From Clostridiales bacterium (GTDB lineage Bacteria; Bacillota; Clostridia; Lachnospirales; WRAX01), in contig JAISCI010000028.1 in assembly GCA_031265685.1 (NCBI GenBank), positions 31 through 64,030 on the forward strand: a DNA stretch of 64,000 nt, written 5' to 3'. Made by a program: the position numbers and the translations under genes. The number at the start of each line of letters is the position of its first letter. The stretch's first letter is position 1. The notes below the pieces were generated by a model. It was not told the DNA's origin, searched no databases, and saw nothing but the letters and a program-made list of their open reading frames with translations. Below, one piece after another: positions 5,787-44,373 of this stretch.

Positions 5787-5812
5787 AAGCTGGAGAATGT
5801 CGGAAGGGGGTG

Positions 5813-7132
5813 ATGTTATTGGCTAAAGTTTACACTGATCAAAATGTGTTCAACGCCTTCATGGACAGAATGGAGTATATATTTTCCAAGTTTGATCACG
5901 TCGTGGTCGCTTTTTCCGGAGGCAAGGATTCCGGCCTGATGCTGGAACTGGTTAACTTATATTACGCGAGGCGCCGCCCCGACGCCAAAGTCTCCGTATA
6001 CCACATCGACTATGAGGGCAATTATCAGTATACCATCGACTACGTATCGCGCTGCATGGGTAAATATCCTTATTTTGACTACTATCACCTTTGTATGCCG
6101 GTTTCGGCTTCATGCGGCGTATCCATGTATCAATCCACATGGATGCCCTGGAATCCGGACGAAAAGGACATCTGGCTCAAGGAACGCCCGCCGGGCGCGA
6201 TAACGCTGGAAAACCACGGCTTCGACTTCTTCAAGGTCGGTATGTCGGACTATGTTTTTCAGACAAAATTCGGCAAGTGGCTTCACAAACGCCGCGGTGC
6301 TAAAAGAACAGCCGTCCTTGTCGGCATACGCGCGCAGGAAAGCCTCAACCGCTATCACGCAGTGACCCGCGACAGCGCCTACCGGATGTTCGGCAAGATC
6401 GCCTACAGCACGCGCGTTTACACGGGTATCTACAATTTTTATCCGCTGTACGACTGGCTGGTCGAGGACATATGGACGGCCAACGCTAAGTTCGGGTTCG
6501 ATTACAATAAACTATACGACCTGTATTATTTGGCGGGCATACCGGTCGTGGAGATGCGCGTAGCCAACCCCTTCCATGAATGCGGAGTGGAAGCGCTCAA
6601 GCTGTTCCGCGCGATCGAGCCGAATACATGGAGCCGGCTGGTCGGACGCGTGAACGGCGCGAATTTCGGCGCGATTTACGGAGGCACGAAAGCGGTCGGC
6701 TACAAGGATATTTCCCTTCCGAAGGGCCACACGTGGAAAACCTACACGGAATTCCTCCTGAACACGCTGCCGTCGCGCACGCGGGAAATATATCGGCGCA
6801 AGTTTGAGACGTCTCTGCGTTACTGGCTTGATAAAGGCGGCGCTCTGCCCGTCAGGGTTGTGAACGAGCTTCGCAAGACGGATATTGTTTTCGAGCGGTT
6901 GGGCAAACCTACCGGAAAACGGAAATACAGGAGCGACCACGAGGTGGTCCGTTTCGCCGAATACCCCGACAGCGTCGATCTGCGGAACTTCCGGTCGCTG
7001 CCCAGTTATAAACGGATGTGCGTGACGATTATGAAGAACGACACGTCATGCCGTTATATGGGGTTCAGCCAGACCAAAGACGAACTGCAGAAAGGAAAGG
7101 AAGCGATGGCCGTATGGGAGAGCCTTATGTAA
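5813..7132 (+). CDS. PAPS-reductase-family ATP pyrophosphatase with a DUF3440-like C-terminal region (IbrA-like)
   Basis: The N-terminus carries the PP-loop VVVAFSGGKDSGLMLELV. The protein is about 440 aa, and its downstream ParB-like partner overlaps it by 19 nt. The exact start is uncertain (GTG 5810, ATG 5813 or TTG 5819). Confidence 0.75.
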   Translation: MLLAKVYTDQNVFNAFMDRMEYIFSKFDHVVVAFSGGKDSGLMLELVNLYYARRRPDAKVSVYHIDYEGNYQYTIDYVSRCMGKYPYFDYYHLCMPVSASCGVSMYQSTWMPWNPDEKDIWLKERPPGAITLENHGFDFFKVGMSDYVFQTKFGKWLHKRRGAKRTAVLVGIRAQESLNRYHAVTRDSAYRMFGKIAYSTRVYTGIYNFYPLYDWLVEDIWTANAKFGFDYNKLYDLYYLAGIPVVEMRVANPFHECGVEALKLFRAIEPNTWSRLVGRVNGANFGAIYGGTKAVGYKDISLPKGHTWKTYTEFLLNTLPSRTREIYRRKFETSLRYWLDKGGALPVRVVNELRKTDIVFERLGKPTGKRKYRSDHEVVRFAEYPDSVDLRNFRSLPSYKRMCVTIMKNDTSCRYMGFSQTKDELQKGKEAMAVWESLM

Positions 7133-7656
7133 GCCCGGTATACAGCGTCATACGCGTTCCGATCGGGAAAATCCAGGCGAACGCGCACAACCCGAACCGC
7201 GTGCCGCCGCCGGAGATGAGGCTGCTCATCAAGTCCATTCTGGAGGACGGCTACACAATGCCTATCGTCTGCTATTATCTGGCGGACGCCGACCGCTATG
7301 AGATTGTCGATGGGTTTCACCGGTATCAGGCCATGAGGCTTTGTCCCGAGATTGCCGAGCGGGAGGGAGAATGCCTGCCCGTGTCCGTGATTGACAAGCC
7401 GCTGACGAGCCGCATAGCCAGCACGATCCGTCATAACCGCGCGCGCGGCGTTCATTCCATTGATCTGATGGTGGACATCGTGGCGAAGCTCGCCGAGGCT
7501 GGGCGGAGCGACGCGTGGATTATGGACAATATCGGCATGGATTCCGACGAGCTGCTGCGGCTCAAGCAGATAAGCGGGCTGGCCTCGCTGTTCGCGGACA
7601 GGGAGTTTTCGCCGGCCTGGGAAAGCGACGCCGTCGCCGGGACAGTCGGAACCTAG
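7114..7656 (+). CDS. ParB-like nuclease domain protein (IbrB-like)
   Basis: Translation from ATG 7114 gives MGEPYVSPVYSVIRVPIGKIQANAHNPNRV...EIVDGFHRYQAM...IRHNRARG, which contains the ParB/Srx-type motifs. It overlaps the 3' end of the upstream gene. Confidence 0.75.
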   Translation: MGEPYVSPVYSVIRVPIGKIQANAHNPNRVPPPEMRLLIKSILEDGYTMPIVCYYLADADRYEIVDGFHRYQAMRLCPEIAEREGECLPVSVIDKPLTSRIASTIRHNRARGVHSIDLMVDIVAKLAEAGRSDAWIMDNIGMDSDELLRLKQISGLASLFADREFSPAWESDAVAGTVGT

Positions 7657-7746: not shown

Positions 7747-8280
7747 ATGGAAATTAAACTGATTGAGCAAAAGCCGCTGACTACTTTAGCTGTGCGTGAA
7801 ACCGCCTCCGGCGCGGAATTGCCGCGGGTTATCAGCGCGGGCTTCGCGCGGGTGTACGATTATATCGTCAAAACCGGCGCTCAAATCATCGACGCGCCCT
7901 ACGCCGCCTATATAAACATGGCCGGCGACAGCTGGGATATTGAAATCGGATTCCCCGTCGCTCGGGAAACGCCGGAAAACGGTTCGGAAGTTTGCGTGAA
8001 CCAGGCAAACTCCCCAGACACGAACCATCCAGAACAAATGTCAACCTTGATTCCGAAACAGCATGAGATTTTCCCGAGCGTAATCCCGGCGGGACGAGCC
8101 GCCGCCGCGCTTCACAAGGGTTCATACGCCGGTCTGGAAGCGGTTTACGGCGAGCTGTTCAAATGGGTCGGGGATAACGGCCTTAAACAGTCCGGAGCGC
8201 CGTATGACCGCTATCTCAACGACCCGTCGGTTACGCCGGAGGACGAGCTGCTGACTAACGTCGTTATACCGGTAATCTAA
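7747..8280 (+). CDS. GyrI-like small-molecule-binding domain protein with an internal ~26-aa insertion
   Basis: MEIKLIEQKPLTTLAVRE...EIGFPV...IPAGRAAAALHKGSY...YDRYLNDP...VVIPV matches the GyrI-like / AraC effector-binding fold pattern. A GGAG RBS is present. Confidence 0.7.
   Translation: MEIKLIEQKPLTTLAVRETASGAELPRVISAGFARVYDYIVKTGAQIIDAPYAAYINMAGDSWDIEIGFPVARETPENGSEVCVNQANSPDTNHPEQMSTLIPKQHEIFPSVIPAGRAAAALHKGSYAGLEAVYGELFKWVGDNGLKQSGAPYDRYLNDPSVTPEDELLTNVVIPVI
7987..8073. repeat. Hairpin-module sequence embedded in-frame in the GyrI-like CDS
   Basis: 7987-8013 (GAAGTTTGCGTGAACCAGGCAAACTCC) matches 19451-19477 (GAATTTTGCGTGAACCAAGCAAAATTC) at 23 of 27 positions, and the G/C changes fall at paired positions. 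The rest of the insert is degenerate. Confidence 0.6.
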
Positions 8281-8468
8281 TTCCACTTAGAATTTGCGCC
8301 GGATATTTTTTCGAGCTTGCGTGTCCGAATTTTGCTTAGTTCACACAAAATTCTCATCGGAATTTTGCTTGGTTCGCACAAAATTCTCATCGGAATTTTG
8401 CTTGGTTCACGCAAAATTCTTAGGGGCGGCCGAAAATATTCGGCGTCCTTTAGAGTGGAATTAGTATA
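8278..8468 (+). mobile_element. TIR-bounded non-coding element, copy A (MITE-like, no ORF)
   Basis: Left end: (ATC)TAATTCCACTTAGAATTTGCGCCGGATATTTTTT. Right end: CCGAAAATATTCGGCGTCCTTTAGAGTGGAATTAGTAT. Homologous ends occur at 59764-59931 and, inverted, at 18181-18415. It lies between two convergent genes. Confidence 0.75.
8327..8420 (+). repeat. Tandem array of a 33-bp hairpin unit, about 2.9 copies, inside element A
   Basis: The unit GAATTTTGCTTrGTTCrCrCAAAATTCTCATCG starts at 8327, 8360 and 8393. Confidence 0.9.
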
Positions 8469-8482
8469 AATAGGCTGCGCGG

Positions 8483-9649
8483 TTATCTCGCCAGTTCCAG
8501 TATTTGGGCGACATCGGCCCGCGTAAGCGGCGTGCTGGCTCCGATCAGACCGTTTTCCGGCATTTGCGTCATATCGGCGAGTTTGCCCAGCGAGTCCGTC
8601 GGTATGCCCGCCTGCGCGAAGCTGACCGGCATACCGAGACAGCGGAAGAATCCCTTGGTCGCCGCGATACATTCTCTCGCGGCGCCGGCGCCTTCAAGCC
8701 CGAACACACGCCGGCCGTACCGCGCGAACCGGGCTTCGTCGTTTTTGTAAACATATTGCATCCAGGCGGGCATTATCACCGAAAGCGACACTCCGTGCGG
8801 CGTGTCGTACAGCGCGCTCAGCTCGTTGGCTATTATATGCGTAGCCCAGTCCTGCGCCCGGCCGACGCCTAGCGTGTCGTTGTGGGCGATCGCAGCCGTC
8901 CACATGGCTTGGGCGCGCAGCTCGTAGCTGTCCAAATTTTCCAGAAGTTTCGGCCCGAACGACGCCACCGCGGCCATGGCGCCCTCCGCCATATGGTCTA
9001 TAATCCCGAATTCGGCGTCGTTCGTAAAATACCGCTCCGCGATGTGGCTGAACATATCCACAAGCCCGTTCGCCGTTACGGAAGCAGGCAGGCTCCGCGT
9101 AATATCGGGGTTCATTAAAGCCAGCTCCGGCTGTATGAACGGACTGCTCGCCAGCCGTTTTTCTGACGTTTCGGCGTTATTGATGACCATGACGCCGCTT
9201 GACTCGCTGCCGCTGGCCGGATTGGTCAGCAGCGCCGCCACCGGCAGCGCCGCGCGTATCGCGGCCCTGCCGGTAAAGAAGTCCCACACGTCTCCGTCAT
9301 ACGGGACTCCCGCGGCGACCGCCTTCGTATGGTCTATGACCGCGCCGCCGCCGATAGCCAGAAGTCCTCGCGATCCGGCGGCGCGGACCGCCTCGATACA
9401 CTGGTATACGCGGGAAAGGCGCGGGTTCGGCTCCGTTCCGCACATAAACTCGCCCCAGCGGACGCCCGCCGCGTCCAGCGCGTTCTTGACGCCGTCGAGC
9501 AGACCGCCGTCGTAAAGGAACCGGCTTCCGTTGTGGCAGATCGTCACCGCGGTAAGGCCTTTTGCCGCGAGTTCCGCGCCCGCGCGGGCGTCGGCGTGTT
9601 TCCCGAATATAAACCGCGTTTTAAGCGAAAACTCAAAATCCCTCATCAT
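8483..9649 (-). CDS. Iron-containing alcohol dehydrogenase (butanol-dehydrogenase-like)
   Basis: MRDFEFSLKTRFIFGKHA...LAIGGGAVIDHTKAVA...HGVSLSVIMPAWM matches the Fe-ADH family pattern. The start is taken at ATG 9649 or 9646, just after the upstream stop codon. Confidence 0.85.
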   Translation of the reverse strand: MMRDFEFSLKTRFIFGKHADARAGAELAAKGLTAVTICHNGSRFLYDGGLLDGVKNALDAAGVRWGEFMCGTEPNPRLSRVYQCIEAVRAAGSRGLLAIGGGAVIDHTKAVAAGVPYDGDVWDFFTGRAAIRAALPVAALLTNPASGSESSGVMVINNAETSEKRLASSPFIQPELALMNPDITRSLPASVTANGLVDMFSHIAERYFTNDAEFGIIDHMAEGAMAAVASFGPKLLENLDSYELRAQAMWTAAIAHNDTLGVGRAQDWATHIIANELSALYDTPHGVSLSVIMPAWMQYVYKNDEARFARYGRRVFGLEGAGAARECIAATKGFFRCLGMPVSFAQAGIPTDSLGKLADMTQMPENGLIGASTPLTRADVAQILELAR

Positions 9650-9654
9650 AACGC

Positions 9655-10341
9655 TCACAGCCCCCATTTAAGAGCGGCCTCGCGCGCCGCCCGAACAAAA
9701 GCCCGCACTTTTTCCGCGTCTTTGCGGACGCTTCCGTCCGGCAACGCGCGATTGGTACGAGTCATCGAATCCACGCCCCACGGTCTCACCGCCGCTATCG
9801 CCTCGGCCACGTTGTCCGGACCCAGGCCGCCCGCCAGAATGACGCGGCATTTAACCCGTTTGACGATTTTGGCGCACACGTCCCAGTCGTTGACAATACC
9901 CGACGCGCCTATTCCCGATATGTTGGGGTCGGACGAATCCAGTATGAGCGTGTCGCAGAACGAGGCGAAGTATTCGGCCTTATCAACCGCCTCCGGACCC
10001 GTTACGGATATAGCCTGCTCTACCAGGATACCCGGGCATACGCGCCTGATATCGGCGCAAAACGCCGGGTCGGCGGCGTAATTATTGCCGCACAGATGCA
10101 CTACGTCCGGATCGAGCGCCCGCGCCATCTCGTAAATCGGATCCGGCCCGTCGGCGACGGTCAGGGCGACGAGACCGATTCTGCCCCGCGCCGCGTCGAA
10201 AACAGCCCTGCCCTGTTCGAGCGATATTTCTGCGGGCAGTCCGGCGCCCGTTCCGGACGCGACGCCGATATAATCCACCCCCGCGCGGACGCACTCCAGC
10301 GCTTCCTCCACGGTCTGTATAGAATAAATCTGCGTAAACAT
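9655..10341 (-). CDS. Phosphoribosylanthranilate-isomerase-like (TrpF-like) TIM-barrel protein, paralog 1
   Basis: 228 aa: MFTQIYSIQTVEEALECVRAGVDYIGV...VILAGGLGPDNVAEAI...WGVDS. This is PRAI-like, but no other trp genes are nearby. Confidence 0.65.
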   Translation of the reverse strand: MFTQIYSIQTVEEALECVRAGVDYIGVASGTGAGLPAEISLEQGRAVFDAARGRIGLVALTVADGPDPIYEMARALDPDVVHLCGNNYAADPAFCADIRRVCPGILVEQAISVTGPEAVDKAEYFASFCDTLILDSSDPNISGIGASGIVNDWDVCAKIVKRVKCRVILAGGLGPDNVAEAIAAVRPWGVDSMTRTNRALPDGSVRKDAEKVRAFVRAAREAALKWGL

Positions 10342-10376
10342 GGTTAACCGTTCCTCTCCATATATAACATATATAA

Positions 10377-11027
10377 TCAGAAACGCCGCCCCAGCAGCAG
10401 GGGGAACAGCGCCGCGGCGCTCTCGGCCAGATAATCGGGGGACAGCTCGCCGCGGGGGTCGCCGTCGCCGTACAGCGCGCCGATAACCGGCATACCGTTG
10501 GCGCGCGCCGCCTCGACGTCGCCGTAAGAATCCCCGACATATACAGAAACTTTATCGGACAGCTCGTTTTCCATCAGCATCGCCAGAAGCTCGGACTTGC
10601 TGAGGTTCCAGCCGCCGGGGCCGTCCGGGGAGTACCACGCCCGGAAGAACTGGGCCAGCCCCAGCAGGCGTATGAGCTTGTCGGCGGCGCGGAACGCTTT
10701 GTTCGTTACGACATACAGTTCTCGGTTATCGCGCCTCAGCGCCTCGAGCAAATCGACGACGCCCGGATACACCGACGTGTTCTCAAACGCGTTGAGGCTG
10801 ACATAATGCCGGTCAAGCTCGCGCTCAAACACGCCGAATCCCTCGGAGCCGCCGCCAATCTCCCGCCAGATGTCGCGCCTCGGCAGGGCGAGATTGCGCG
10901 CGCAGGCGCGGAACTCCGGAGAGACGCGCCCCCCGGCGCGTGCCGCCGCGTATTCGACCGAACGCCATACGTCCTCGGCGGTATCGGCCAGAGTGCCGTC
11001 GAAATCGAATATAACGGCGTCATACAT
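10377..11027 (-). CDS. HAD-superfamily phosphatase (phosphoglycolate-phosphatase-like)
   Basis: MYDAVIFDFDGTLADT (motif I DxDGT), VVTNK, and GDSYGDVEAA (motif IV). Confidence 0.85.
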   Translation of the reverse strand: MYDAVIFDFDGTLADTAEDVWRSVEYAAARAGGRVSPEFRACARNLALPRRDIWREIGGGSEGFGVFERELDRHYVSLNAFENTSVYPGVVDLLEALRRDNRELYVVTNKAFRAADKLIRLLGLAQFFRAWYSPDGPGGWNLSKSELLAMLMENELSDKVSVYVGDSYGDVEAARANGMPVIGALYGDGDPRGELSPDYLAESAAALFPLLLGRRF

Positions 11028-11044
11028 AAGTCATCCGGCCTCCT

Positions 11045-11157
11045 CATACTAATCCCATTTAGATTTATGGATAAAAATTTTTCAAGCGTCAGCGCGTTCG
11101 CGCGGCTTTAAGCGCGAACTGAAAAATTTTTATCCGTCTTTTGAAATGGGATTAGTA
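11045..11157 (+). mobile_element. TIR-bounded element, sister subfamily, copy D
   Basis: ATACTAATCCCATTTAGATTTATGGATAAAAATTTTT ... AAAAATTTTTATCCGTCTTTTGAAATGGGATTAGTAT. The 15-bp termini are perfect inverted repeats. The right arm supplies the last codons of the EamA ORF. Confidence 0.75.
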
Positions 11158-12089
11158 TTAAGGCAATGGCCGCCCCAGAATACGCCCGCCGTCACCAGCA
11201 GCGAGCCGGCGACCACGGGAAGCGTGATCTTGGCGCCCAGGATAAGCGCCGACGCCAGCACGGAGATTATGGGCAGCATATTCGCGATCGCGACGACAAG
11301 GACGACGTTTCCCCTTCTCATCGACATATTCCAGAAGATCGTCGCGCACAGCGACGATAACAGGATCTGGAACGCCAGCTCTGCGCCGGATTCGATCGGG
11401 TTCAGGATCGAATTGCCTAAGGATTCGCGGCTGAACCCGCGCGAATACAGCTCGCTGCCTGTTTCCGGGCTGAACGTCAGGGCAAGCGCCATAAGCGCCC
11501 CCGCCGCCAGCATAAAATAGCCTACGCCGTCGAAATCCGAGCGGACATGTTCCATATATTTACGCGTCAGTATCGAGAACAGCGCCCACGCCGCGGCGGA
11601 AGCCAGAGCGATCAGCGCGGACGGCAGTATGAAGCCGTCGGAGAGGATGTACGCGGCGTCCTGCCCGTAGCCCCCGCCCCACACGGTTATCGCGGCAGCG
11701 CCCGACGCGCTCAGGGCGAAACTGCCCCAAATCCAGCGGGACGCCTTCTTCTTCAGGACAAGCGGAGTCAGCAGCATCGCGAAGACCGGCCACATGAACT
11801 TTATTACTCCGACGGCCAGAGCTTGCTGGCGCGTCTGCGCGACGGCGGTGGACACGTATGACGAGAGCACGTAAAAGACGTACAGCGCGCCGCAGACAAA
11901 GACGTACCGCCTGGGAAGGGCGCGCATATCCCCCCAGCTCCCGTGACGCAAGCGGGACGCCGCGCAGATCAGCGCGCCGGACAGCAGGTTGACCAGCGCG
12001 CCGGAGGTAAACAGTCCAAGACGTTCCGCCAGCGTGCGGGTAAACGCCCCGCTGACACCCCAAATCACGACGGCCGCCGCGCCCAGCAA
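11130..12089 (-). CDS. EamA/DMT-superfamily transporter
   Basis: 319 aa with about 10 hydrophobic segments and a two-fold EamA-like organisation. The start is TTG. The C-terminal NTNPISKDG is encoded by element D. Confidence 0.7.
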   Translation of the reverse strand: MLGAAAVVIWGVSGAFTRTLAERLGLFTSGALVNLLSGALICAASRLRHGSWGDMRALPRRYVFVCGALYVFYVLSSYVSTAVAQTRQQALAVGVIKFMWPVFAMLLTPLVLKKKASRWIWGSFALSASGAAAITVWGGGYGQDAAYILSDGFILPSALIALASAAAWALFSILTRKYMEHVRSDFDGVGYFMLAAGALMALALTFSPETGSELYSRGFSRESLGNSILNPIESGAELAFQILLSSLCATIFWNMSMRRGNVVLVVAIANMLPIISVLASALILGAKITLPVVAGSLLVTAGVFWGGHCLNTNPISKDG

Positions 12090-12124
12090 TGTATAATTGG
12101 TTTTTATATTTACGCGCCCCCCTT

Positions 12125-12174
12125 AGACCAATCCCATTTTCAAGGACGGATAAAAATCTAAATGGGATTAGTAT
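12125..12174 (-). mobile_element. Minimal copy E of the D-type element, termini only, inverted relative to D
   Basis: AGACCAATCCCATTTTCAAGGACGGATAAAAATCTAAATGGGATTAGTAT equals the reverse complements of the D right arm and D left arm joined at GGATAAAAAT. Confidence 0.7.
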
Positions 12175-13154
12175 CACGGGCAATCGCGCAGGGTCTGGAT
12201 CAGCAGATCCATAAATCCCGGGAAGTCCAGCCGCAGCGCGGCTTCGGCGTTGGGGCGCTCCCCGCGGAAGCCCATGGTCGGGCTTTCGGTTACGTCCGTG
12301 CCCGGCGTTTCGCAGCGCAGATGACGGTAGTCGCAGACGGTCATGCCGCGCGTGAACTCGCCTTTCAGCTCCACGGTTATGTGCATGGGAGCGGCGGTGA
12401 TAAGCTCGGGACGGATCAGCCACGCGACGGCGCAGGCGTCGTGCAGGTTGGCGGCCGGAAGCGAGGCCGCTTCTTTGGACGTACCCAAAAAGAAGTTCAG
12501 CAGATCGACGGCGAACTTGGCCGTTCGGGTCGGAATCTTCGCTATCTCATCGACGCGCTCCCGCGATACGGCGCACTGCCGCGTGAGGTTAACGCCCGAC
12601 ATTTTAATCGGCACGCCGGAGTTAAACACGCGGTACGCGGCCTCCGGATCGACGAAGATATTAAACTCCGCCGCCGGCGTCCAGTTGCCGAAAGTCACCG
12701 AGCCGCCCATGAGACAGATCTCACGTATCCTCCCCGCGATCTCGGGAGCGCGGTTAAGCGCCGCGGCTATATTCGTCAGCGGGCCGGTGGGCACAAGCGT
12801 AACGCCGTCGACGCTTTTCACGGTTTCAACTATAAAGTCCACGGCGTGTTCCTTTTGCGGCGCGGTAACGGGATCGGGCAGCACTGGGCCGTCCAGCCCG
12901 CTTTCCCCGTGGAACTGCGGCGCGGTCACAAGCTCGGCCACCATCGGGCGCGAATGCCCCGCGTACACGGGTATATCGGTCCGGTCTATAACCTCCAGCG
13001 TTTTGAGCGCGTTTTTCGTTACGTTCCCGAGACAGCAATTGCCGCCGATCGTCGTAACGCCCAGCACATCCAGATGGCTCGCGGCGAGTATAATGGCGAA
13101 AGCGTCGTCGTGCCCGGGGTCGCAATCCAGTATTATTTTACGTCTGGCCTCCAT
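12174..13154 (-). CDS. Inosine/uridine-preferring nucleoside hydrolase family protein
   Basis: Translation from ATG 13154 (AGGAG RBS) gives MEARRKIILDCDPGHDDAFAIILA, the N-terminal DxDxxxDD aspartate cluster. Length is about 326 aa. Confidence 0.85.
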   Translation of the reverse strand: MEARRKIILDCDPGHDDAFAIILAASHLDVLGVTTIGGNCCLGNVTKNALKTLEVIDRTDIPVYAGHSRPMVAELVTAPQFHGESGLDGPVLPDPVTAPQKEHAVDFIVETVKSVDGVTLVPTGPLTNIAAALNRAPEIAGRIREICLMGGSVTFGNWTPAAEFNIFVDPEAAYRVFNSGVPIKMSGVNLTRQCAVSRERVDEIAKIPTRTAKFAVDLLNFFLGTSKEAASLPAANLHDACAVAWLIRPELITAAPMHITVELKGEFTRGMTVCDYRHLRCETPGTDVTESPTMGFRGERPNAEAALRLDFPGFMDLLIQTLRDCP

Positions 13155-13171
13155 GGAATCAGCTCCTGTCG

Positions 13172-14158
13172 TTATTTGACGCACTGGCGCCGGCTCGCGC
13201 CGCGGATAAACTCGCTCAGCTGCTCCGCGGTCGGGGTGGCGCGGCCGCCCTTGCGGCTCACTTTGTATCCGGAAACACCGTTGCCCCAGATAAGGCAGTC
13301 ACGGAGGTCGCGCCCCTGAAGCCGCGCGGCGATAAAACCGGCGTTGAACACGTCGCCCGCCCCGACGGTGTCCGTTACGGGCACGTCGAACGGTTTCTCC
13401 TCATACTCGGCGCGGGGCGTCATAGCCACGGAGCCGTCCGCTCCCATCCTCGCTATAACGGTCCGGTCGCCGCGCGCGAAAGAACGCGCGCACTCCCGCC
13501 AGTCGTCATGCTCGGACAGATAATAAAACTCTTCCGGTCCCGAACCCAGCGCGTAATCGCACCATTCAAGCACATCCAGAACAGCCCGCCGGTACCCCTC
13601 GTCCAGCACTCCGTTATCCACGCGCAGGTTCAGATCGAACGAAGTCGGGATACCGAGCTCCTTCGCCCTTTTGAAAATTTCGGCGACGCTCCGCCGGGCC
13701 GAGGTGTCGCTTGTGAGCAGCATACCCGAGCTGTGTATCCATCCGGCGTTTTCGACCGACTTCCAGCAGATTCTGTCGAGATACTGAAACGACTGACGCT
13801 CGCGCGGCCAGCCCCAAAGATACCGCTCGCCGCGCTCGTCCACGAAGGCGAACACGCATACCGTGTTCAGATCCGCGTCCATTATCAGAGCGGACGTATT
13901 CACGCCGGCGCAGCGCAGCTCGTCAACGAGCATACGCCCGTAAGCGTCGTCGCCGACCGTACCCATGAACGCCGTCGGAACGCCCAGCTTGGCAAGCGCC
14001 ATCAGCGTGTTGCCGCACGTGCCTCCGCCGGTCAGTTCCGGATCCGGATACGCGACGCGCCCGTCCGGCGAAATCGCGGGGAACTTAACGATAAGATCCA
14101 CGTTGATGTCGCCGACGACCAGCACGCCGTCTTTCCGTACGCCCTCATAGCCGCGCAT
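13172..14158 (-). CDS. PfkB-family carbohydrate/nucleoside kinase
   Basis: VLVVGDINVDL...GGGTCGNTLMALAKLG...DTVGAGDVFNAGF contains PfkB signatures 1 and 2. The start is taken at ATG 14158, overlapping the upstream gene; the alternative is 14176. Confidence 0.85.
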   Translation of the reverse strand: MRGYEGVRKDGVLVVGDINVDLIVKFPAISPDGRVAYPDPELTGGGTCGNTLMALAKLGVPTAFMGTVGDDAYGRMLVDELRCAGVNTSALIMDADLNTVCVFAFVDERGERYLWGWPRERQSFQYLDRICWKSVENAGWIHSSGMLLTSDTSARRSVAEIFKRAKELGIPTSFDLNLRVDNGVLDEGYRRAVLDVLEWCDYALGSGPEEFYYLSEHDDWRECARSFARGDRTVIARMGADGSVAMTPRAEYEEKPFDVPVTDTVGAGDVFNAGFIAARLQGRDLRDCLIWGNGVSGYKVSRKGGRATPTAEQLSEFIRGASRRQCVK

Positions 14159-14846
14159 TTTGGGCAGCCTCCACAAAAGCCTTTACCTTCGCCATGTCTT
14201 TGACGTTCGTGCCCGACGGGTTATCAAGGTTGGTCAGGCTGTAGGAATCGACGCCGTAGGGCCTGGCCGTCTCGGCGGCGCGGGCCACGTTGCCCGCGGT
14301 AAGGCCTCCGGCGATGATACACGGCACCCGCGTGCTTTTAACAAGATCGCGGTCAATCTCCCAGTCGTGGGCGACACCGGTCGCGCCGATATCCGACGCG
14401 GCGGGAATTTTTGTGTCGATCAGGAAAAAATCGGCGACCGGCTCGTACATCCGGATATACTCGAAAGCCTTCTGTTCTTCCCTCGGCGCGCCGGGGAGGA
14501 CGGGGATGGCCTGCATAATCTTAAGCATGGGGAACCGCTCGCGCAGCTCAGCGGCGCGCCTCGGGCTGATACCGTCGATATCCCCCGAAAGGTGGAGTAC
14601 CTGCGGCAGCGTTTCGAGCAGGTCCTCCGTTATAACGTCTATATCCTCGGATACCGTCAGACCGACCCGCACGGCGTCCGGCTGAACTTTCTCAAATATT
14701 TCCTTCGCCTGTTCGCACGAAAGCTGTCCCGGCGTGCCCTTGATTTTGCCGTAGGAGACGCCGATATGGCGCGCGCCCAGATCGACCACGCCGCGCGCAT
14801 CCTCGACGGAGCGGATTCCGTAGATTTGCACTATGATATTGTTCAT
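14145..14846 (-). CDS. Phosphoribosylanthranilate-isomerase-like (TrpF-like) TIM-barrel protein, paralog 2
   Basis: 233 aa: IVQIYGIRSVEDARGVVDLGARHIGV...CIIAGGLTAGNVARAA...YGVDS. It is collinear with paralog 1, and an ATGA overlap joins it to ecfA'. Confidence 0.65.
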   Translation of the reverse strand: MNNIIVQIYGIRSVEDARGVVDLGARHIGVSYGKIKGTPGQLSCEQAKEIFEKVQPDAVRVGLTVSEDIDVITEDLLETLPQVLHLSGDIDGISPRRAAELRERFPMLKIMQAIPVLPGAPREEQKAFEYIRMYEPVADFFLIDTKIPAASDIGATGVAHDWEIDRDLVKSTRVPCIIAGGLTAGNVARAAETARPYGVDSYSLTNLDNPSGTNVKDMAKVKAFVEAAQNARL

Positions 14847-15658
14847 GCCATTTTCCTCCTTCTCGCCTTCATTGTCTCGACAAGCTCGTCCACGCTGAAC
14901 GCCGGCTTCTCAAAGCCCATGCCGAGCGAAACGCGGCTGATCGGCGGCGGCGACACGAAGCTTTTTTTCAGCAGCTCCGGTTTCGCGAACACTTCGCGGC
15001 TGTCCCCGTCAATCAAAACGCGCCCGTGGCACAGCGCGACGACGCGCGGAAAGTTCGCGGCCACGAATTTCATATCATGCGAAATAGTGACGCACAGCTT
15101 GCCGCGTTTCTCCAAATGACCGATTATCTCCGACAGCCTACGGCTGCCCTCGACGTCCTGCCCGCACGTCGGCTCGTCGAATATGATAACGTCCGGATCC
15201 ATCATCATTACCGAACCGATAGCGCAGAACTTTTTCTGCGTGGCGGTCAGGTCGAACGTATGCGAGTCCAGCTTATCGCCAAGGCCGCACAGCTCGGCGA
15301 TCTCGGGCAGCCTCTTTTGTATGTCCGCGGCTGGGACGCCCACGCGCTCCGGCCCGAACTCAAATTCCTTGCGCACGCTGTTCAGGAAGAGCTGATCGTC
15401 CGGGTTCTGGAACACGTACCCGACGCGTTTCGACCATTTGGCCGTCGATTGTTTAGTGGTTTCCACTCCGTCGATGAGCACCGCGCCGGAGGTGGGAGAC
15501 AAAATCCGGTTGAAGTGCTTTACGAGCGTCGTCTTCCCGCTGCCGTTCTGCCCCACGACGGCGACGGGCGTTACGCCTTCGATCGTAAAGCTCACGCCTT
15601 TTAACGCTTCTTCCCCCGTGGGGTACGTGTGGCGCAAATCCCGTATTTCTATCCTCAT
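14843..15658 (-). CDS. ECF transporter ATPase component (A')
   Basis: Contains Walker A GQNGSGKTT and Walker B IIFDEPT. An ATGA overlap is present at both ends. Confidence 0.9.
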   Translation of the reverse strand: MRIEIRDLRHTYPTGEEALKGVSFTIEGVTPVAVVGQNGSGKTTLVKHFNRILSPTSGAVLIDGVETTKQSTAKWSKRVGYVFQNPDDQLFLNSVRKEFEFGPERVGVPAADIQKRLPEIAELCGLGDKLDSHTFDLTATQKKFCAIGSVMMMDPDVIIFDEPTCGQDVEGSRRLSEIIGHLEKRGKLCVTISHDMKFVAANFPRVVALCHGRVLIDGDSREVFAKPELLKKSFVSPPPISRVSLGMGFEKPAFSVDELVETMKARRRKMA

Positions 15659-16509
15659 ACCGCGATCGCCGCCTTCCCCGCGTTGATGGCTTCCCGCTCC
15701 GTCAGCAGAGCCGGACCGCCGTACATGCCGGCGCCGCTCATCGCCGCGCCGAACCGGGCGTATTCCGGCATATCGACGCCGTGACTCTGGAATATTCCGT
15801 TAAATATGGCGCGCGGGGTGTCGATGGCGAGCAGCTGACCGTCGTTCATGACGAGCACCCGATCGGCGCAACGCGCCACGCGTTCCATATCATGATCCAC
15901 CATAACTACGGTAATGCCGTCTTTATTCAGGCGCTTTACAATATCAAACACTTCTTCGCTGCCGAGGGGATCGAGCTGAGTCGTGCATTCGTCCAGCACG
16001 AGAATCGACGGGCGCATAATAAGCGTGGACCCGATGGCCACCCGCTGTATCTGCCCGCCCGACAGCTCGAGGGGATTTTTTCGCAAAAGCCCCCCAACGC
16101 GTATGGTTTCCGCGATTTCCTTCACCCGGCGCCGCATCTCGTCCCGCGGCGCGCCGATGTTGCACAGGCCGTAGGCAAGTTCTTCCTCGACCGTGCTTGT
16201 CGTGTATGAAATCTGGTTGAAAGGATTCTGGAACACAAGGCCGATCTTGCTGGCCAGGTTCGCTACGCTCGTCCCCTCCGTGTCCTGCCCAAGGACGCTT
16301 ACGCCGCCTTTTTTGGCGCCGCTGAAATAAGACGGTATCAGCCCGACAAGCGCGTTGCACAGCGACGATTTGCCCGCTCCGTTAGGGCCTATGATACACA
16401 AAAACTCGCCGCGCCCGACGGTGAAGCTCAAATCTTTCAGCGCCTGTTTACGCTCCCCGGCGTACCTGAAGCTCAGGTTTTTGACCTCGATCACAGTGTC
16501 CACGCTCAT
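15655..16509 (-). CDS. ECF transporter ATPase component (A)
   Basis: Translation from ATG 16509 contains Walker A GPNGAGKSS, signature LSGGQ and Walker B LVLDECT. An ATGA overlap joins it to the T component. Confidence 0.9.
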   Translation of the reverse strand: MSVDTVIEVKNLSFRYAGERKQALKDLSFTVGRGEFLCIIGPNGAGKSSLCNALVGLIPSYFSGAKKGGVSVLGQDTEGTSVANLASKIGLVFQNPFNQISYTTSTVEEELAYGLCNIGAPRDEMRRRVKEIAETIRVGGLLRKNPLELSGGQIQRVAIGSTLIMRPSILVLDECTTQLDPLGSEEVFDIVKRLNKDGITVVMVDHDMERVARCADRVLVMNDGQLLAIDTPRAIFNGIFQSHGVDMPEYARFGAAMSGAGMYGGPALLTEREAINAGKAAIAV

Positions 16510-17333
16510 ACCCCCAATCCCAGTACCGGGCGCAGCGCCCAGAATACCGCGAATAATACGCACACAATCAAAAACGCCACAAGAACTTTCTTCGCGGCTT
16601 TTTCGCCCGGGGTTAAATACAGCGCCACAAAGCTTGTCGGGCGGACGTCTTTGACGCCGAACCCGCGCGTCTCCAGCGTCATGCCGCGCTCCTGCACGTC
16701 CACAAGGCTGCTCATGACCGTCGGCCCGATAATCGGCAAGAACGCTTTGAACCGCGTGGACATAGTGCCTTCCACCTCTACTCCGCGCGCCGTCTGAGCC
16801 TCCTGGATAACCGCGATGCGGCGCTGGATCTGCGGCACCACGTTAAGGCTGGCCAGCACCAGGTATCCCGCCTTCGAGTTTAACCCGGCGTCCTGCATGG
16901 CCGTCACCAGTTTCCCGGGGTATGTCGTCGTGGTCATAAGATAAAACCCGCCCAGGAATACCAGCAGCGTGCCCACGGTCTTAAACGCGTACACAACGCC
17001 CTCAAGGCCGAGCCGCGCGAAGCCGAAGTCGGCCAGAACCGTCACGTTTTTCGGGCTGTACAGTCCCTGGATAATCAGCAGCATACATGTTATTGGTACG
17101 GCGAAAGCTATGATGAATTTGCTGAACCTTCCCAGCAGCTTAGCCCGCCAGGCCACGCAGAAGAGGAACGCCACCACGGCGTAGGACAGCCACAGGAAAG
17201 GAAAGGCGGCGCATCCGATTCCAAGGCATAACACCCCATAGATTTTCACCATCGGGTGCATTCTGTCGATAGGCGAATCCAGCGGAATGTAACTTGATGT
17301 TTTTTTAGTTTTAATTTTATTTTGTTTCGACAT
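16506..17333 (-). CDS. ECF transporter transmembrane T component (EcfT/CbiQ family)
   Basis: 275 aa and polytopic, with the conserved ARG coupling motif (AQTARGVEVEG). Confidence 0.8.
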   Translation of the reverse strand: MSKQNKIKTKKTSSYIPLDSPIDRMHPMVKIYGVLCLGIGCAAFPFLWLSYAVVAFLFCVAWRAKLLGRFSKFIIAFAVPITCMLLIIQGLYSPKNVTVLADFGFARLGLEGVVYAFKTVGTLLVFLGGFYLMTTTTYPGKLVTAMQDAGLNSKAGYLVLASLNVVPQIQRRIAVIQEAQTARGVEVEGTMSTRFKAFLPIIGPTVMSSLVDVQERGMTLETRGFGVKDVRPTSFVALYLTPGEKAAKKVLVAFLIVCVLFAVFWALRPVLGLGV

Positions 17334-17364
17334 TTCGTCATCTCCCTTCCTTATTTTCGAGTCG

Positions 17365-17409
17365 GAGCCATGGGGTTACCGGACCTGTTCGGGGCGGACC
17401 CCATGGCTC
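17365..17409 (-). promoter_or_regulatory. Intercistronic stem-loop between the S and T genes
   Basis: GAGCCATGGGG (17365-17375) and CCCCATGGCTC (17399-17409) form a perfect 11-bp inverted repeat with a 23-nt loop. No U-run follows. Confidence 0.5.
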
Positions 17410-17442
17410 GTTACAAATCAGAGGCTTATACGGACAATCCGG

Positions 17443-18084
17443 TCACGCGGGCGAGCCGTCCGGGTCTTCCGCGAAATCGTCCGTACCGTCCAGGGAATAC
17501 TGGCTGCGCAGGCGCTTGGGTATGTACTTGAGGATAACGTAGGCGATGGCGAACGCGATAGCCCGGTCGATCAGGTTCTCGATCATGGACGAGGCGAAGA
17601 TGGATCCCAGTATTTCCTGCGTCGCCGCGATCAGCGTCACGGTCAGCAGGGACGATCCGGTCGCGCCCGTCGCGCCGCCGAAAACGAAATACGTCACGCT
17701 GCCCGCCAAAGCCGCCGATACCACGGTGGAGGCGAGCCAGATAATCACGACGCCCCAAATCTTTTTGAACAGCCCCGCCCTCATCATAAACCCGACGACC
17801 AGCGCCACGCCGACGCTGACGACGGAATACGGCAGGTAGACCGGATTGGAGACAAGAGCCAGGAAAATATTAGTAAGCAGACCGACCAGCGCCGCAACCC
17901 ACGGTCCGGCCAGCGCCGCCGAGACTATGGTGCCGATCATATCGAGAAATATCGGCAGCTTGAGATTGGAGGCAAGCATACCGCCGACCAGGTTTATACC
18001 CACCGCGATCGGGATGAGCACGATAGCCTTGACCGAAAACTGATCTTTGATGCCTTGGATAAAGCTTTTCTTGTTTTTGCCCAT
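17443..18084 (-). CDS. ECF transporter substrate-specific S component; substrate unknown
   Basis: Translation from ATG 18084 (GGGAGGA RBS) gives 213 aa with about 6 TM helices in an ECF S-type topology (YkoE/ThiW-like feel). The acidic C-terminal tail is DGTDDFAEDPDGS. Confidence 0.7.
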   Translation of the reverse strand: MGKNKKSFIQGIKDQFSVKAIVLIPIAVGINLVGGMLASNLKLPIFLDMIGTIVSAALAGPWVAALVGLLTNIFLALVSNPVYLPYSVVSVGVALVVGFMMRAGLFKKIWGVVIIWLASTVVSAALAGSVTYFVFGGATGATGSSLLTVTLIAATQEILGSIFASSMIENLIDRAIAFAIAYVILKYIPKRLRSQYSLDGTDDFAEDPDGSPA

Positions 18085-18180
18085 GATTAGTCCTCCCATT
18101 GACATGATTGATACTAATCTCAATTATCCCCTGATTGAGATCAGCGCAATGCATCCCGCGCGGGGATACAATCGTCTGTC

Positions 18181-18415
18181 ATACTAATTCCATTCTATAA
18201 GGACGCCAAATATTTTTTCGGTCCGCTCCTGGAATTGTGCATCGCATTATCGAGTGACAGAAGTTTGCGCGAATCGAAGCATTATCGTGTGGTTCAAACG
18301 ATAATGCGATGCAAACTTCGTCCAAGCGATAACGCTTCGAACCAAGCAAAATTCAGAGCCGCGCGGACGCACGCGCTTAAAGAATATCCGGCACAAATCT
18401 GAATGGAATTAGTAT
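18181..18415 (-). mobile_element. TIR-bounded non-coding element, copy C (inverted relative to A and B) with a four-stem X/Y core
   Basis: ATACTAATTCCATTCTATAAGGACGCCAAATATTTTTTCGG ... AAGAATATCCGGCACAAATCTGAATGGAATTAGTAT. The core at 18232-18354 is a nested palindrome. Confidence 0.8.
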
Positions 18416-18421
18416 CAGCGA

Positions 18422-19153
18422 TTAACGCTCGCTTTCATCTTCCGCTCCGATGTCCGCGACCGCCTGCTCTATGACCGAATCGAGCATCTCGCGGATCGAC
18501 CGCTCACCGAGAGCCGTATCTTTTTCCGCGATGGCTTGGACTATCTTCGTGTGCAGCGCGACGCCCTCCGCCGCGCCGACGGGCGAAAGCGTCAGGCGGA
18601 TGGATTTTTCCACTAACTCGCTTATGGCCTTGCACGCGTTGGAGATCAGCGGGTTTTGTGTCATCTGCGCCAGTTTCAGGTGAAACATCGTGTCGAAATA
18701 GGCGTAAGAGTTATAGTCGGACAGATTATCCCCCATCATGACCGTGTACCGCTTCAGTAGCTCCACATCGCCCGGGCGCGCCCTCTCTATCGCCAGCCGG
18801 ACCGTGCCGGCCTCCAATATCTTCCGATACTCCAGGAGGTTGAGTATGTCTTTACCGCCGGGCTTCGCCACGGAGAGCATCGTCTTGAAATAGTCCCCCG
18901 AGTTAAACTCTTTTACAAAAGATCCCCTGCCTTGCTGAGTCTCGATGAGATTCAGCGCGACGAGCTTTTGCAAAGCCTCGCGCACCGTGATGCGGCTGAC
19001 GCCCAGTTCGCCCGTGAGCTGGTTCTCGGAAGGTATTTTCCTTCCCGGTTTCCATTGCCCCGACGTTATCTTCTCGAGCAGAGTTTCATACACTTGAGTC
19101 CGGGCGTCGTTTTTATCCAAGCCATCTCCCTGAATGAATTCCAGGTTATCCAC
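18422..19153 (-). CDS. GntR-family transcriptional regulator (FadR/FCD subfamily)
   Basis: The start is GTG with an AAAGGAGG RBS. The wHTH is KIPSENQLTGELGVSRITVREALQKL, followed by an all-helical C-terminal FCD-like domain. Confidence 0.85.
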   Translation of the reverse strand: MDNLEFIQGDGLDKNDARTQVYETLLEKITSGQWKPGRKIPSENQLTGELGVSRITVREALQKLVALNLIETQQGRGSFVKEFNSGDYFKTMLSVAKPGGKDILNLLEYRKILEAGTVRLAIERARPGDVELLKRYTVMMGDNLSDYNSYAYFDTMFHLKLAQMTQNPLISNACKAISELVEKSIRLTLSPVGAAEGVALHTKIVQAIAEKDTALGERSIREMLDSVIEQAVADIGAEDESER

Positions 19154-19422
19154 CTCCTTTCCGACTTATAATACAAGTCGAGAAATTATATTATAACTTC
19201 GATATTTGTATTATAAGATAGATTTTTTATTTACGCAATACACGAAACCTACAAACTTTCGAGCGTATTGTTGTGCATATTGCCGCCGCGCGGTTGTCGC
19301 CGTAACCCAGTTGTATTTTCATTTCATAAACTTCGGTAACATCCAAGAAAACGGGCGGTCAGCGGAAATTCAGACTCATAAGCATTAAGGCGCGGCAAGA
19401 AGGCGCGGCAAACGCCGGCCAA

Positions 19423-19512
19423 GAATTTTGCATCGCATTATCGCTTGATGGAATTTTGCGTGAACCAAGCAAAATTCGTCCACGCGATAATGCTTCGAAC
19501 CGCGCAAAATTC
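19423..19512. repeat. Three-stem nested palindrome (X/Y word family)
   Basis: GAATTTTGC-ATC-GCATTATCG-7-GAATTTTGC-GTGAACCAA-GCAAAATTC-7-CGATAATGC-TTCGAACCGC-GCAAAATTC. Confidence 0.85.
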
Positions 19513-44267: not shown

Positions 44268-44373
44268 GAATTTTGCGTGAATTGAAGCATTATCGTGTGG
44301 TTTGAACACGTGAAGCGCCTCAACCCGAGGGCTTACGAACATGACAGAATTTTGCTTGATTCACGCAAAATTC
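44268..44373. repeat. X/Y-word repeat block (partly degenerate)
   Basis: GAATTTTGC-GTGAATTGAA-GCATTATCG-TGTGGTTTGAAC ... GAATTTTGC-TTGATTCAC-GCAAAATTC. Confidence 0.75.

Follow-up and report, generated by a model that had tools for sequence, protein, structure and literature searches.

A TrpF-fold protein paired with a PfkB kinase in a conserved ECF-transporter operon, a probable nucleoside-scavenging system of several bacterial phyla

Gene content and conservation of the operon

We analyse a stretch of 64,000 nucleotides from a Clostridiales bacterium (contig JAISCI010000028.1 of assembly GCA_031265685.1; the whole stretch is called the window here) and, within it, an operon at positions 8483-19153 that brings together an energy-coupling factor (ECF) transporter, a nucleoside hydrolase, a PfkB-family kinase and two proteins with the fold of phosphoribosylanthranilate isomerase (PRAI, or TrpF). 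The operon holds 12 genes, all on the minus strand and read in a single direction, and the list of open reading frames (ORFs) and the Pfam and NCBIfam scans of the window agree with the orientation and domains that an initial annotation, made from the letters alone, had given them. It opens with a GntR-family regulator carrying an FCD domain (18422-19153; PF00392 77 bits, PF07729 75 bits), followed by the four genes of the transporter: the S component (17443-18084, in an ORF that reaches 18123; PF12822 22.9 bits, under the cut-off), the CbiQ-type transmembrane component T (16506-17333; PF02361 56 bits) and the ATPases A (15655-16509, ORF to 16563; PF00005 95 bits) and A' (14843-15658; PF00005 89 bits). 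Then come the first TrpF-fold protein (14145-14846; PF00697 56.8 bits), which we call QIY no. 1 after a motif described below, the PfkB kinase (PfkB1, 13172-14158, ORF to 14176; PF00294 153 bits) and a RihA-like N-ribohydrolase of the IUNH family (12174-13154, ORF to 13184; PF01156 327 bits). The remaining genes encode an EamA/DMT transporter (11130-12089; PF00892 69 bits), a HAD-IA phosphatase (10377-11027; PF13419 84.5 bits), the second TrpF-fold protein, QIY no. 2 (9655-10341; PF00697 49.1 bits), and an iron-type alcohol dehydrogenase (Fe-ADH, 8483-9649, ORF to 9667; PF00465 and PF25137).

Reading the junctions base by base, we find ATGA overlaps at T/A (16506/16509), A/A' (15655/15658) and A'/QIY no. 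1 (14843/14846) and a 14-nt overlap between QIY no. 1 and PfkB1 (14145/14158), the same four that had first been reported. The S, T and two A genes lie in one translationally coupled block and make up a dedicated group I type ECF transporter. Translation of ATPase A starts at the ATG at 16509, which overlaps the stop codon of T. The most likely start of the hydrolase is the ATG at 13154, which has AGGAG upstream and leaves no overlap with PfkB1, and that of the S component is the ATG at 18084, whose GGGAGGA ribosome-binding site makes it preferable to 18123; the Fe-ADH probably starts at the ATG near 9649. Scanning for promoters and terminators gave counts at chance level, and these are not used.

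To what extent do these genes belong together? Our survey took one genome per species and returned 45 loci, and the 12 window proteins were then compared by tblastn with all loci. The core order S-T-A-A'-PRAI-PfkB-IUNH-(EamA)-HAD-FeADH recurs in about 45 genomes of several phyla at protein identities of 40-75%, with synteny of the core that is nearly perfect in the tblastn table, and the earlier supposition of one conserved unit is thereby upheld. Carriers are found in Oscillospiraceae, Lachnospiraceae, Bifidobacterium, Gardnerella, Collinsella, Treponema, Levilactobacillus and Enterococcus; they include Anaerostipes hominis, Schaedlerella arabinosiphila, Bifidobacterium imperatoris, B. colobi and Gardnerella piotii, with further loci in Olsenella, Atopobium, Vagococcus and Oceanobacillus. 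In the gene neighbourhoods of B. lemurum and of metagenome-assembled genomes (MAGs) of a Coriobacteriaceae member and a Treponema, the order S-T-A-A'-PRAI-PfkB-IUNH-HAD-FeADH is identical. Orthologues of QIY no. 1 are 54-78% identical across phyla (62-78% for the annotated entries from Clostridiales, Oscillospiraceae, Spirochaetes, Bifidobacterium and Coriobacteriaceae), the S component is 50-74% identical among related loci, and the T component is syntenic in every complete locus.

Around this core several parts come and go. Homologues of the GntR regulator stand upstream of the cluster in about 16 of the 45 loci, while about 25 have a divergent LacI-ribokinase fusion instead; GntR is an exchangeable part of the cluster. 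An EamA homologue occupies the same position in 16 loci, a second, ribokinase-like PfkB gene follows the Fe-ADH in about 25, a DHA2-type (Tet38-like) transporter of the MFS class is present in 25 and a second IUNH gene in 11, and the HAD gene adjoins the Fe-ADH gene in 41 related loci. The closest relative (locus L006, from an Oscillospiraceae MAG) reads GntR-S-T-A-A'-PRAI-PfkB-IUNH-HAD and then has a ribokinase-like gene, with no EamA, second PRAI or Fe-ADH gene in the locus. At the position of the second PRAI gene (9655-10341), none of 50 related loci has a counterpart, and this gene is an insertion specific to the window. The initial annotation had taken two TrpF-like isomerases to be a feature of the pathway; this has to be given up, as only the first belongs to the conserved cluster and the second comes from a sister clade whose members normally have a kinase of their own.

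The best NCBIfam match of the S component is NF045596, the 'CD3073 family', at 111 bits against a cut-off of 180; by this score it is a relative of that family and not a member. No paper on the CD3073 family was found in the literature searched, and no relative of the S component with a solved structure was found in the PDB at E<=1. The hydrolase is about 50% identical to the E. coli RihA structures and scores 317 bits with the RihA model (cut-off 433). Aligned with the RihA and RihB structures, it keeps the motifs DCDPGHDD, HGESG, TGPLTN, AEFNIFVDPEA and LHDA and retains all catalytic and ribose-binding motifs of RihA, and because of this it should hydrolyse ordinary (pyrimidine) ribonucleosides. 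The EamA protein reaches 120 bits with the YddG model (cut-off 194) and is a probable exporter of YddG-like type. The HAD protein, with PGP_bact as best NCBIfam match (83 bits, cut-off 180), is a phosphoglycolate-phosphatase-like IA enzyme whose closest structures are uncharacterised HAD phosphatases. The Fe-ADH scores 228 bits with the YqhD-type model (cut-off 645), and with the TM0820 butanol dehydrogenase (281 bits) and YqhD (211-213 bits) as its nearest structures it is assigned to the butanol-dehydrogenase/YqhD group of aldehyde reductases. The usual divergent regulator of related loci is a LacI-type repressor of about 630 residues that carries a full ribokinase-like domain (265 bits to the ribokinase model), seen in L001 (4627-6510), L003, L044, L040 and about 20 other loci; such a fusion either senses its ligand through the kinase fold or is a bifunctional regulator and enzyme.

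The QIY subfamily and its partner kinase

Both TrpF-fold proteins exceed the PF00697 cut-off of 22.7 bits, and public annotations name proteins of this kind PRAI. Their scores with the two best-matching TrpF equivalog models of NCBIfam are 102 bits (no. 1) and 86 bits (no. 2), against cut-offs of 215-216. When aligned with Thermotoga maritima TrpF, the KICG motif reads QIYG or QIYS, and the catalytic Cys7 is a Tyr (Tyr9 in no. 1). What is shared with canonical TrpF (EC 5.3.1.24) is the fold, the phosphate loops AGGL and GVDS that hold the 5-phosphate, the general-acid Asp126 (D144 in no. 1) and a His (H85) of the QLHG-type motif. What differs, besides Cys7, is Arg36, which in TrpF binds the anthranilate carboxylate and here appears as Gln41 in clade 1 and as Glu in clade 2 (an approximate assignment, as the local alignment has a gap there), and the motif DVSSGVE, which becomes DSxSxT[NSD]. 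The QIY proteins add three conserved polar or acidic pocket residues, T64, Q112 and D139, and no basic ones, and they add the pairing with a kinase. An AF2 model of QIY no. 1 has a pLDDT of 92.4, and the top PDB folds returned by Foldseek are all TrpF, with TM values of 0.71-0.90 at an identity of 21-25%. The two QIY proteins of the window are 37% identical to one another.

A profile search of 1.84 billion representatives returned 125 clusters at E<=1e-30. Q-I-Y, H85, D139, D144 and DSxSxT[NSD] are common to 76 of about 120 full-length representatives, which puts the size of the subfamily at no fewer than 76 clusters at 50% identity, in several clades; the sister clade that holds QIY no. 2 has 1889 hits. 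Canonical TrpFs, with K-I-C-G and DVSSGVE, form a separate set that the library search recovers with weaker scores only. Among the recurrent neighbours of QIY genes in about 100 loci, no trp genes were seen. Because the catalytic Cys is replaced by Tyr, Arg36 is lost, the scores fall far under the equivalog cut-offs and a trp context is missing, we conclude from sequence comparison that the QIY proteins are a large distinct subfamily and not TrpF, and in this the initial annotation, which had excluded tryptophan biosynthesis, was right. An aldolase role for these proteins was considered and is less likely: they have no conserved barrel Lys and no metal ligands, and their only invariant Lys residues lie in a C-terminal KD motif that is common to true TrpF. 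A search for fusions among 150 representatives gave one informative case, a PRAI-Maf fusion to which we return below. The 610-residue protein P0347 has Ala in place of the Tyr and no second known domain, and P0306 and P0336, two long proteins from actinobacteria, seem to owe their length to mis-called starts.

The most constant neighbour of a QIY gene is a PfkB kinase. Counting all QIY genes of the survey with at least 1.1 kb of sequence on both sides, a PfkB gene of one special subfamily lies within 150 bp of 70 of 74. This kinase is related to known PfkB families at a distance: the top NCBIfam matches of PfkB1 are the haloarchaeal ATP-dependent ribose 1-phosphate (R1P) kinase (131 bits, cut-off 330) and IolC (124 bits), all far under their cut-offs. 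With the ribokinase model TIGR02152 it scores 91 bits and with FrlD 83 bits (cut-off 247), and the match to PsuK (NF007355; 31 bits, cut-off 540) is one at the level of the PfkB superfamily only. Sister-clade kinases match IolC with a higher score than R1P kinase. Within the survey, PfkB1 is 32-36% identical to the partners of sister-clade QIY proteins (146-179 bits) and scores 31-54 bits with the RbsK-like paralogues, so that the kinases paired with one QIY clade have their closest relatives among those paired with the other. They also share a signature, GGTxxN[TS] (GGTCGN in PfkB1), where ribokinases have GGKGxNQ; in related loci GGKGxNQ is present in the PfkB2 and LacI-PfkB genes, which reach 216-265 bits with the ribokinase model. 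Since RbsK-like kinases and LacI-RbsK regulators occur alongside PfkB1 in 28 loci, PfkB1 is not simply a ribose kinase. Sister-clade QIY genes and their own PfkB genes stand as two-gene units in housekeeping surroundings (Longilinea, Erysipelotrichaceae and many metagenome contigs), QIY no. 2 of the window being an exception without a partner kinase of its own. From the coupling in 70 of 74 cases and the mutual kinship of the kinases it follows that QIY and PfkB are an old, co-evolving module.

This module is also found outside the ECF-type operon. In a second operon type (L086-L089, L095 and L096) the QIY-PfkB pair is joined to an ABC nucleoside transporter of the Bmp/PnrA type and two to four IUNH paralogues, and some of these operons add a GntR-FCD regulator, MatE, AEC or YitT membrane proteins and a LUD-domain protein. 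Neither the HAD nor the Fe-ADH gene occurs in the Bmp-type or the stand-alone versions of the pair. A further partner is Maf, a single-copy housekeeping gene, to which QIY is linked three times independently: in the singleton fusion QIY::Maf (P0324), in L101, where the QIY and Maf genes have overlapping stop and start codons, and in L068, where QIY-PfkB-Maf lie downstream of ftsEX and uvrB. Three such linkages in about 100 loci are far above chance. Two of the three linked Mafs have the R-T-Q motif of the YhdE type, the pyrimidine-specific group. Maf proteins are nucleoside-triphosphate pyrophosphatases that prefer m5UTP, pseudo-UTP, m5CTP or m7GTP, and those of the YhdE type hydrolyse UTP, dTTP, m5UTP, pseudo-UTP and m5CTP to monophosphates (PMC3899018).

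Some less regular neighbours of QIY genes may be recorded here. In four metagenome loci (L088, L089, L092 and L095; for example L095 9635-10306) a gene for a stand-alone LUD-domain protein is found no more than about 1 kb 3' of QIY, and in L089 and L095 it lies directly 3' of the QIY-PfkB pair. In the Oscillospiraceae locus L053 a ComB-like 2-phosphosulfolactate phosphatase (2345-3052) takes the place of the kinase beside QIY. Judged by its N-terminal sequence alone, a gene at L059 4664-5428 is like those of uridine/purine nucleoside phosphorylases; it is 2.5 kb upstream from a PfkB-QIY pair in reversed gene order.

Probable nucleoside scavenging and its alternatives

We now consider what this operon might do. 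Homology bears out the first annotation in that the operon is not the canonical system for pseudouridine catabolism (psuKG), ribose utilisation (rbs) or queuosine salvage. An importer and an N-ribohydrolase are coupled here to one another and, in relatives, to ribokinases and ribose-type regulators, and for this reason we regard a role in the scavenging of nucleosides or ribosides as quite probable. The first annotation had proposed that an N-glycosyl compound is imported and hydrolysed, and this part of its model is strengthened by the intact IUNH motifs and by the Bmp/PnrA operons with their two to four IUNH genes; ribulosamine as the imported substrate is not supported, as discussed below. 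Among the closest described systems are the rihC-rbsK-rihT/rihP loci of Bifidobacterium, in which comparative genomics links RbsR paralogues, rbsK, rihC and MFS transporters with the utilisation of nucleosides that come from RNA and in which the RbsR paralogues control genes for pyrimidine-nucleoside utilisation (PMC4746261). Those loci resemble ours in having a LacI/RbsR-type regulator, a ribokinase, an IUNH-family hydrolase and an MFS transporter, and the actinobacterial versions of our cluster are made of the same parts. The present cluster differs in adding an ECF importer, the QIY/PfkB1 pair, HAD and Fe-ADH, and in a regulator that is fused to a ribokinase or is of the GntR-FCD type.

In the mechanism that we favour, the ECF importer (S-T-A-A') would take up one or more nucleosides, assuming that it transports inward, and the RihA-like hydrolase would split the ordinary N-ribosides into base and ribose. 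The ribose would be handled, in most relatives, by the ribokinase-like paralogue or LacI-ribokinase fusion of the same locus, and the base or another product may leave through EamA here and through MFS, MatE or AEC proteins elsewhere. A nucleoside that resists the hydrolase would be phosphorylated by PfkB1 at the 5' position, and QIY would then open and process the 5-phosphoribosyl ring by acid/base chemistry of the TrpF type, with Asp144 as the acid and Tyr9 as the base in place of the Cys. With pseudouridine, this would lead over pseudo-UMP to uracil and ribose 5-phosphate (R5P) or a ring-opened isomer. On chemical grounds the acid-catalysed opening of the furanose would need a push from an electron-rich aglycone, which the enamine-like C5 of pseudouridine could give and an amide-type N1 could not. 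HAD and Fe-ADH would be accessory to the ECF-type operon only, and at the family level HAD is predicted to dephosphorylate nucleotides or sugar phosphates and Fe-ADH to reduce aldehydes.

What points to a hydrolase-resistant, 5'-phosphorylated nucleoside as the QIY substrate is that ribokinase-like genes co-occur with PfkB1 and that both partner types of QIY, the kinase and Maf, yield nucleoside 5'-monophosphates; we hold the case for a nucleoside 5'-monophosphate to be evenly balanced. Pseudouridine, the most abundant modified nucleoside of RNA, has a C-C glycosidic bond. It is the candidate of choice on account of that abundance, that bond, the precedent of PsuK/PsuG and pseudo-UTP as a Maf substrate, though a substrate derived from it is for us a possibility on the doubtful side. 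PsuK/PsuG (E. coli yeiC/yeiN) is likewise a two-gene unit of a PfkB-family kinase and an enzyme acting on the 5'-phosphoribosyl compound that the kinase forms; it is found by itself or together with a nucleoside transporter, and it deals with what is out of reach of N-ribohydrolases. The differences are that our kinase is no orthologue of PsuK (31 bits) and that QIY carries a Tyr/Asp pair on the TrpF (beta-alpha)8 fold. The fold of PsuG is one of its own, and the enzyme has a Schiff-base Lys and a metal; domain scans of the 12 operon genes gave no match to its family (indigoidine synthase A-like). By analogy, then, the kinase/QIY pair may work like PsuK/PsuG without belonging to that system. 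Taken whole, the explanation that the operon scavenges RNA-derived, mainly pyrimidine-type nucleosides and contains a PsuK/PsuG-like kinase/QIY pair is a tentative one, which we place a little short of evenly balanced. A bolder version would make the whole QIY family cofactor-free degraders of pseudouridine 5'-phosphate, or of another hydrolase-resistant modified pyrimidine nucleotide, and a non-homologous replacement for PsuG that with PfkB and, in places, Maf provides the main route by which many anaerobes (among them Oscillospiraceae, Lachnospiraceae, Erysipelotrichaceae, Anaerolineae, Bifidobacterium, Gardnerella and Collinsella) recycle or live on the most abundant modified nucleoside of RNA; this we consider possible but rather unlikely.

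Several observations weigh against this explanation. PfkB1 is far from PsuK (31 against 540 bits) and nearer to sugar kinases such as IolC, fructokinase and R1P kinase, and QIY has no conserved Schiff-base Lys such as PsuG uses. TrpF chemistry is an isomerisation and not a cleavage of C-C bonds, and ECF transporters usually carry micronutrients rather than carbon sources. The HAD and Fe-ADH genes, conserved in 41 loci, are not explained by the pseudouridine model. The linkage to Maf is rare, at 3 of about 100 loci, and two more contexts of clade 10 (L102 and L103) are without Maf. Lastly, a Desulfobacterales clade of QIY proteins (motif QIYE; L099 and L100 8001-8831) is encoded by single genes that have guaA on one side and efp on the other and lack a partner kinase; this clade may have another role, or its substrate may already be phosphorylated.

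The first alternative keeps the nucleoside setting and changes the substrate: the pair would be a divergent ribose 5-kinase and a TrpF-fold R5P isomerase, which converts R5P to ribulose 5-phosphate and so feeds ribose freed by the hydrolase into the pentose-phosphate or phosphoketolase pathway. The attraction is chemical, as isomerisation of R5P is an aldose-ketose shift and so exactly what TrpF does, and the conserved residues of the QIY pocket are polar and not aromatic; moreover, the partner of QIY is the only kinase in Bmp-type operons and stand-alone pairs. Against it, RbsK-like kinases are present besides PfkB1 in 28 loci, and PfkB1 itself lacks the GGKGxNQ motif of ribokinases. The strict coupling of two genes suggests a private intermediate rather than R5P, and the Maf fusion and adjacencies are left unaccounted for. 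We judge this route improbable.

A second alternative gives HAD and Fe-ADH roles. Here PfkB1 would be an R1P kinase, QIY a ribose 1,5-bisphosphate (R15P) isomerase not homologous to the eIF2B type, HAD a phosphatase of ribulose 1,5-bisphosphate (RuBP) and Fe-ADH a glycolaldehyde reductase that forms ethylene glycol. The family of sn-glycerol-1-phosphate dehydrogenase lies within the Fe-ADH superfamily. In the haloarchaeal non-carboxylating pentose bisphosphate pathway, nucleoside ribose is converted by a PfkB kinase, an isomerase of 1-substituted ribose 5-phosphate and a HAD phosphatase, and the glycolaldehyde reductase of the archaeal route is annotated as sn-glycerol-1-phosphate dehydrogenase (PMC9700705). 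The haloarchaeal ATP-R1P kinase is the top NCBIfam match of PfkB1, and the step from R15P to RuBP is in form the 1-substituted aldose-to-ketose shift that TrpF carries out. The 131 bits are, however, far under the cut-off of 330, and the sister-clade kinases are closer to IolC. Our operon has no phosphorylase, FucA aldolase or eIF2B-type isomerase, its isomerase has another fold and its entry is through a hydrolase, which yields ribose and not R1P; nor is there a nucleoside phosphorylase or FucA-type aldolase among the recurrent neighbours of about 97 QIY genes. We down-weight a role as R15P isomerase further as QIY has no conserved Arg or Lys for a second phosphate, and the wider QIY/PfkB module does not include HAD and Fe-ADH, which its Bmp-type and stand-alone versions lack. 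A pathway of this kind is decidedly improbable.

We give a similarly low standing to the catabolism of 2'-O-methyl (or other sugar-modified) ribonucleosides, in which the hydrolase would free 2-O-methylribose, PfkB1 would phosphorylate it, QIY would either cleave it or isomerise it with an oxygen-independent loss of methanol through an enol ether, and Fe-ADH would reduce the aldehyde. PfkB1 retains the Asp/Asn that binds the cis-diol and has lost other residues of the ribokinase motifs, which presumably contact O1 and O4 as in the E. coli ribokinase structure, and if a cleavage step came first, an aldehyde reductase would fit in well behind it. The catabolism of 2'-O-methylnucleosides has been described as largely unexplored (PMC6278475, PMC12709175), and the candidate clusters described for it, RK9NH and RK9DPA, resemble our operon in combining a GntR regulator, a ribokinase-like kinase, a nucleoside hydrolase and a TIM-barrel enzyme acting on a sugar phosphate (PMC6278475). 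Their TIM-barrel protein is a DERA-like class I aldolase, however, and they have no ECF importer, HAD or Fe-ADH. The hydrolase in the window keeps DxDxxxDD, which binds the 2'-OH in RihA-type enzymes; stand-alone QIY-PfkB pairs have no hydrolase; and the Maf link points to pyrimidine nucleotides modified in the base and not in the sugar.

The model first proposed for this operon, namely import of an Amadori-type (ribulosamine) compound or N-ribosylamine, phosphorylation by an FrlD-like kinase and de-glycation by the TrpF-like enzyme in a reverse Amadori reaction, is very unlikely. In its favour, the TrpF reaction is an Amadori rearrangement, an ammonium group could be bound by the conserved acidic residues D139 and Glu/Gln41, the kinase FrlD is of the PfkB family, and FrlB is an example showing that the Amadori reaction can run in reverse with hydrolysis coupled to it. 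The analogy with frl fructosamine catabolism breaks down in the details, since the kinase is not of FrlD grade (83 against 247 bits), the operon has no FrlB-like gene with a SIS domain and the regulator is of the FCD type, unlike FrlR, which we take to be a GntR regulator of the HutC/UTRA type. All recurrent partners (IUNH, ribokinase-like kinases, nucleoside ABC transporters, Maf) belong to the handling of nucleosides or nucleotides, and no conserved gene handles amino acids or amines. That the QIY proteins are genuine phosphoribosylanthranilate isomerases that are in the operon by chance is almost certainly wrong: the PF00697 score above gathering, the TrpF fold and the public PRAI name are outweighed by Cys changed to Tyr, Arg36 to Gln or Glu, 86-102 bits against about 215, the lack of trp neighbours, the separate and lower-scoring group formed by the KICG proteins and the presence of the family in nucleoside loci of Gardnerella and Collinsella.

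Intergenic elements and wider meaning

Besides its genes the operon contains several repeats. A 26-nt inverted repeat at 19165-19217 (repeat pair I12) lies directly 5' of the gntR start, its arms (CTTATAATACAAGTCGAG... and ...TTGTATTATAAG) being 81% complementary and separated by a 1-nt spacer, and we propose it as a candidate autoregulatory operator of GntR. A TTGTAT half-site is found upstream of the S gene near 18165. Four intergenic spaces of the operon hold copies of a terminal inverted repeat (TIR), ATACTAAT[CT]CCA[CT]T, that is like those of miniature inverted-repeat transposable elements (MITEs). They are in an element in the gntR/S spacer (18183-18415; 'C' in the first annotation), with terminal inverted repeats ACTAATTCCATT at 18183 and 18402; a fragment in the IUNH/EamA spacer (12120-12174; 'E'; repeat families D6, D11, I3 and I11); an element in the EamA/HAD spacer (11046-11158; 'D'), which forms the inverted repeat I1 with 39-nt arms that are 85% complementary; and an element, also resembling repetitive extragenic palindromic (REP) sequences, 3' of the last gene (8280-8467; repeat families D1 and D3; TIR at 8454-8465) with three tandem 33-nt palindromic units. 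In the window the core motif ACTAATYCCAYT is present seven times, against an expectation of 0.01, and one of these copies is at 59918-59929.

These elements look like intergenic insertions specific to the lineage, because the 14-nt extended form of the repeat, ATACTAATYCCAYT, is absent from all 101 related loci. EamA has been affected by them: its start is a TTG at 12089 with no Shine-Dalgarno sequence and with an in-frame TAA from element 'E' immediately upstream, and its last 10 or so codons and the stop derive from element 'D'. By this reading of the sequence a MITE-like insertion has cost EamA its native 5' end, and what is left may be a gene that is in decay or expressed poorly. A 27-nt palindromic REP-like unit, GAATTTTGC...GCAAAATTC, gives 12 strand-hits in the window against none expected, at 1167-1193, 8327-8419 (the three tandem 33-nt units), 19451-19477 and 44347-44373, and thus on both flanks of the operon. 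We reject the idea that the cluster is a mobile unit bounded by MITEs, as the palindromic unit is also found at 1167 and 44347 and the TIR motif is absent from related loci. Beyond the operon's 3' end, the window carries on the plus strand a PAPS-reductase/DUF3440 protein (5810-7132) and an overlapping ParB_N-domain protein (7018-7656), a pair that we take to resemble the IbrA/IbrB type; a GyrI-like effector-binding protein is next (7747-8280).

No publication describing the cluster or the QIY subfamily was found in the literature searched. The operon is probably of a known kind, nucleoside scavenging, equipped with a widespread and uncharacterised enzyme pair and an ECF importer, and we see a realistic chance of a new reaction on the TrpF scaffold. 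If this is true, thousands of sequences (at least 76 clusters at 50% identity) are misannotated as phosphoribosylanthranilate isomerase, and metabolic reconstructions that score QIY genes as trpF would over-predict tryptophan prototrophy. A change of the catalytic base from Cys to Tyr would then have given a new reaction to a well-studied (beta-alpha)8 scaffold. The hypothesis can be tested in cultivable carriers, among them Anaerostipes hominis, Schaedlerella arabinosiphila, Bifidobacterium spp., Gardnerella piotii, Levilactobacillus and Enterococcus. For the organisms themselves, it would explain how anaerobes of the gut, mouth and vagina make use of nucleosides from RNA, some of them perhaps modified.

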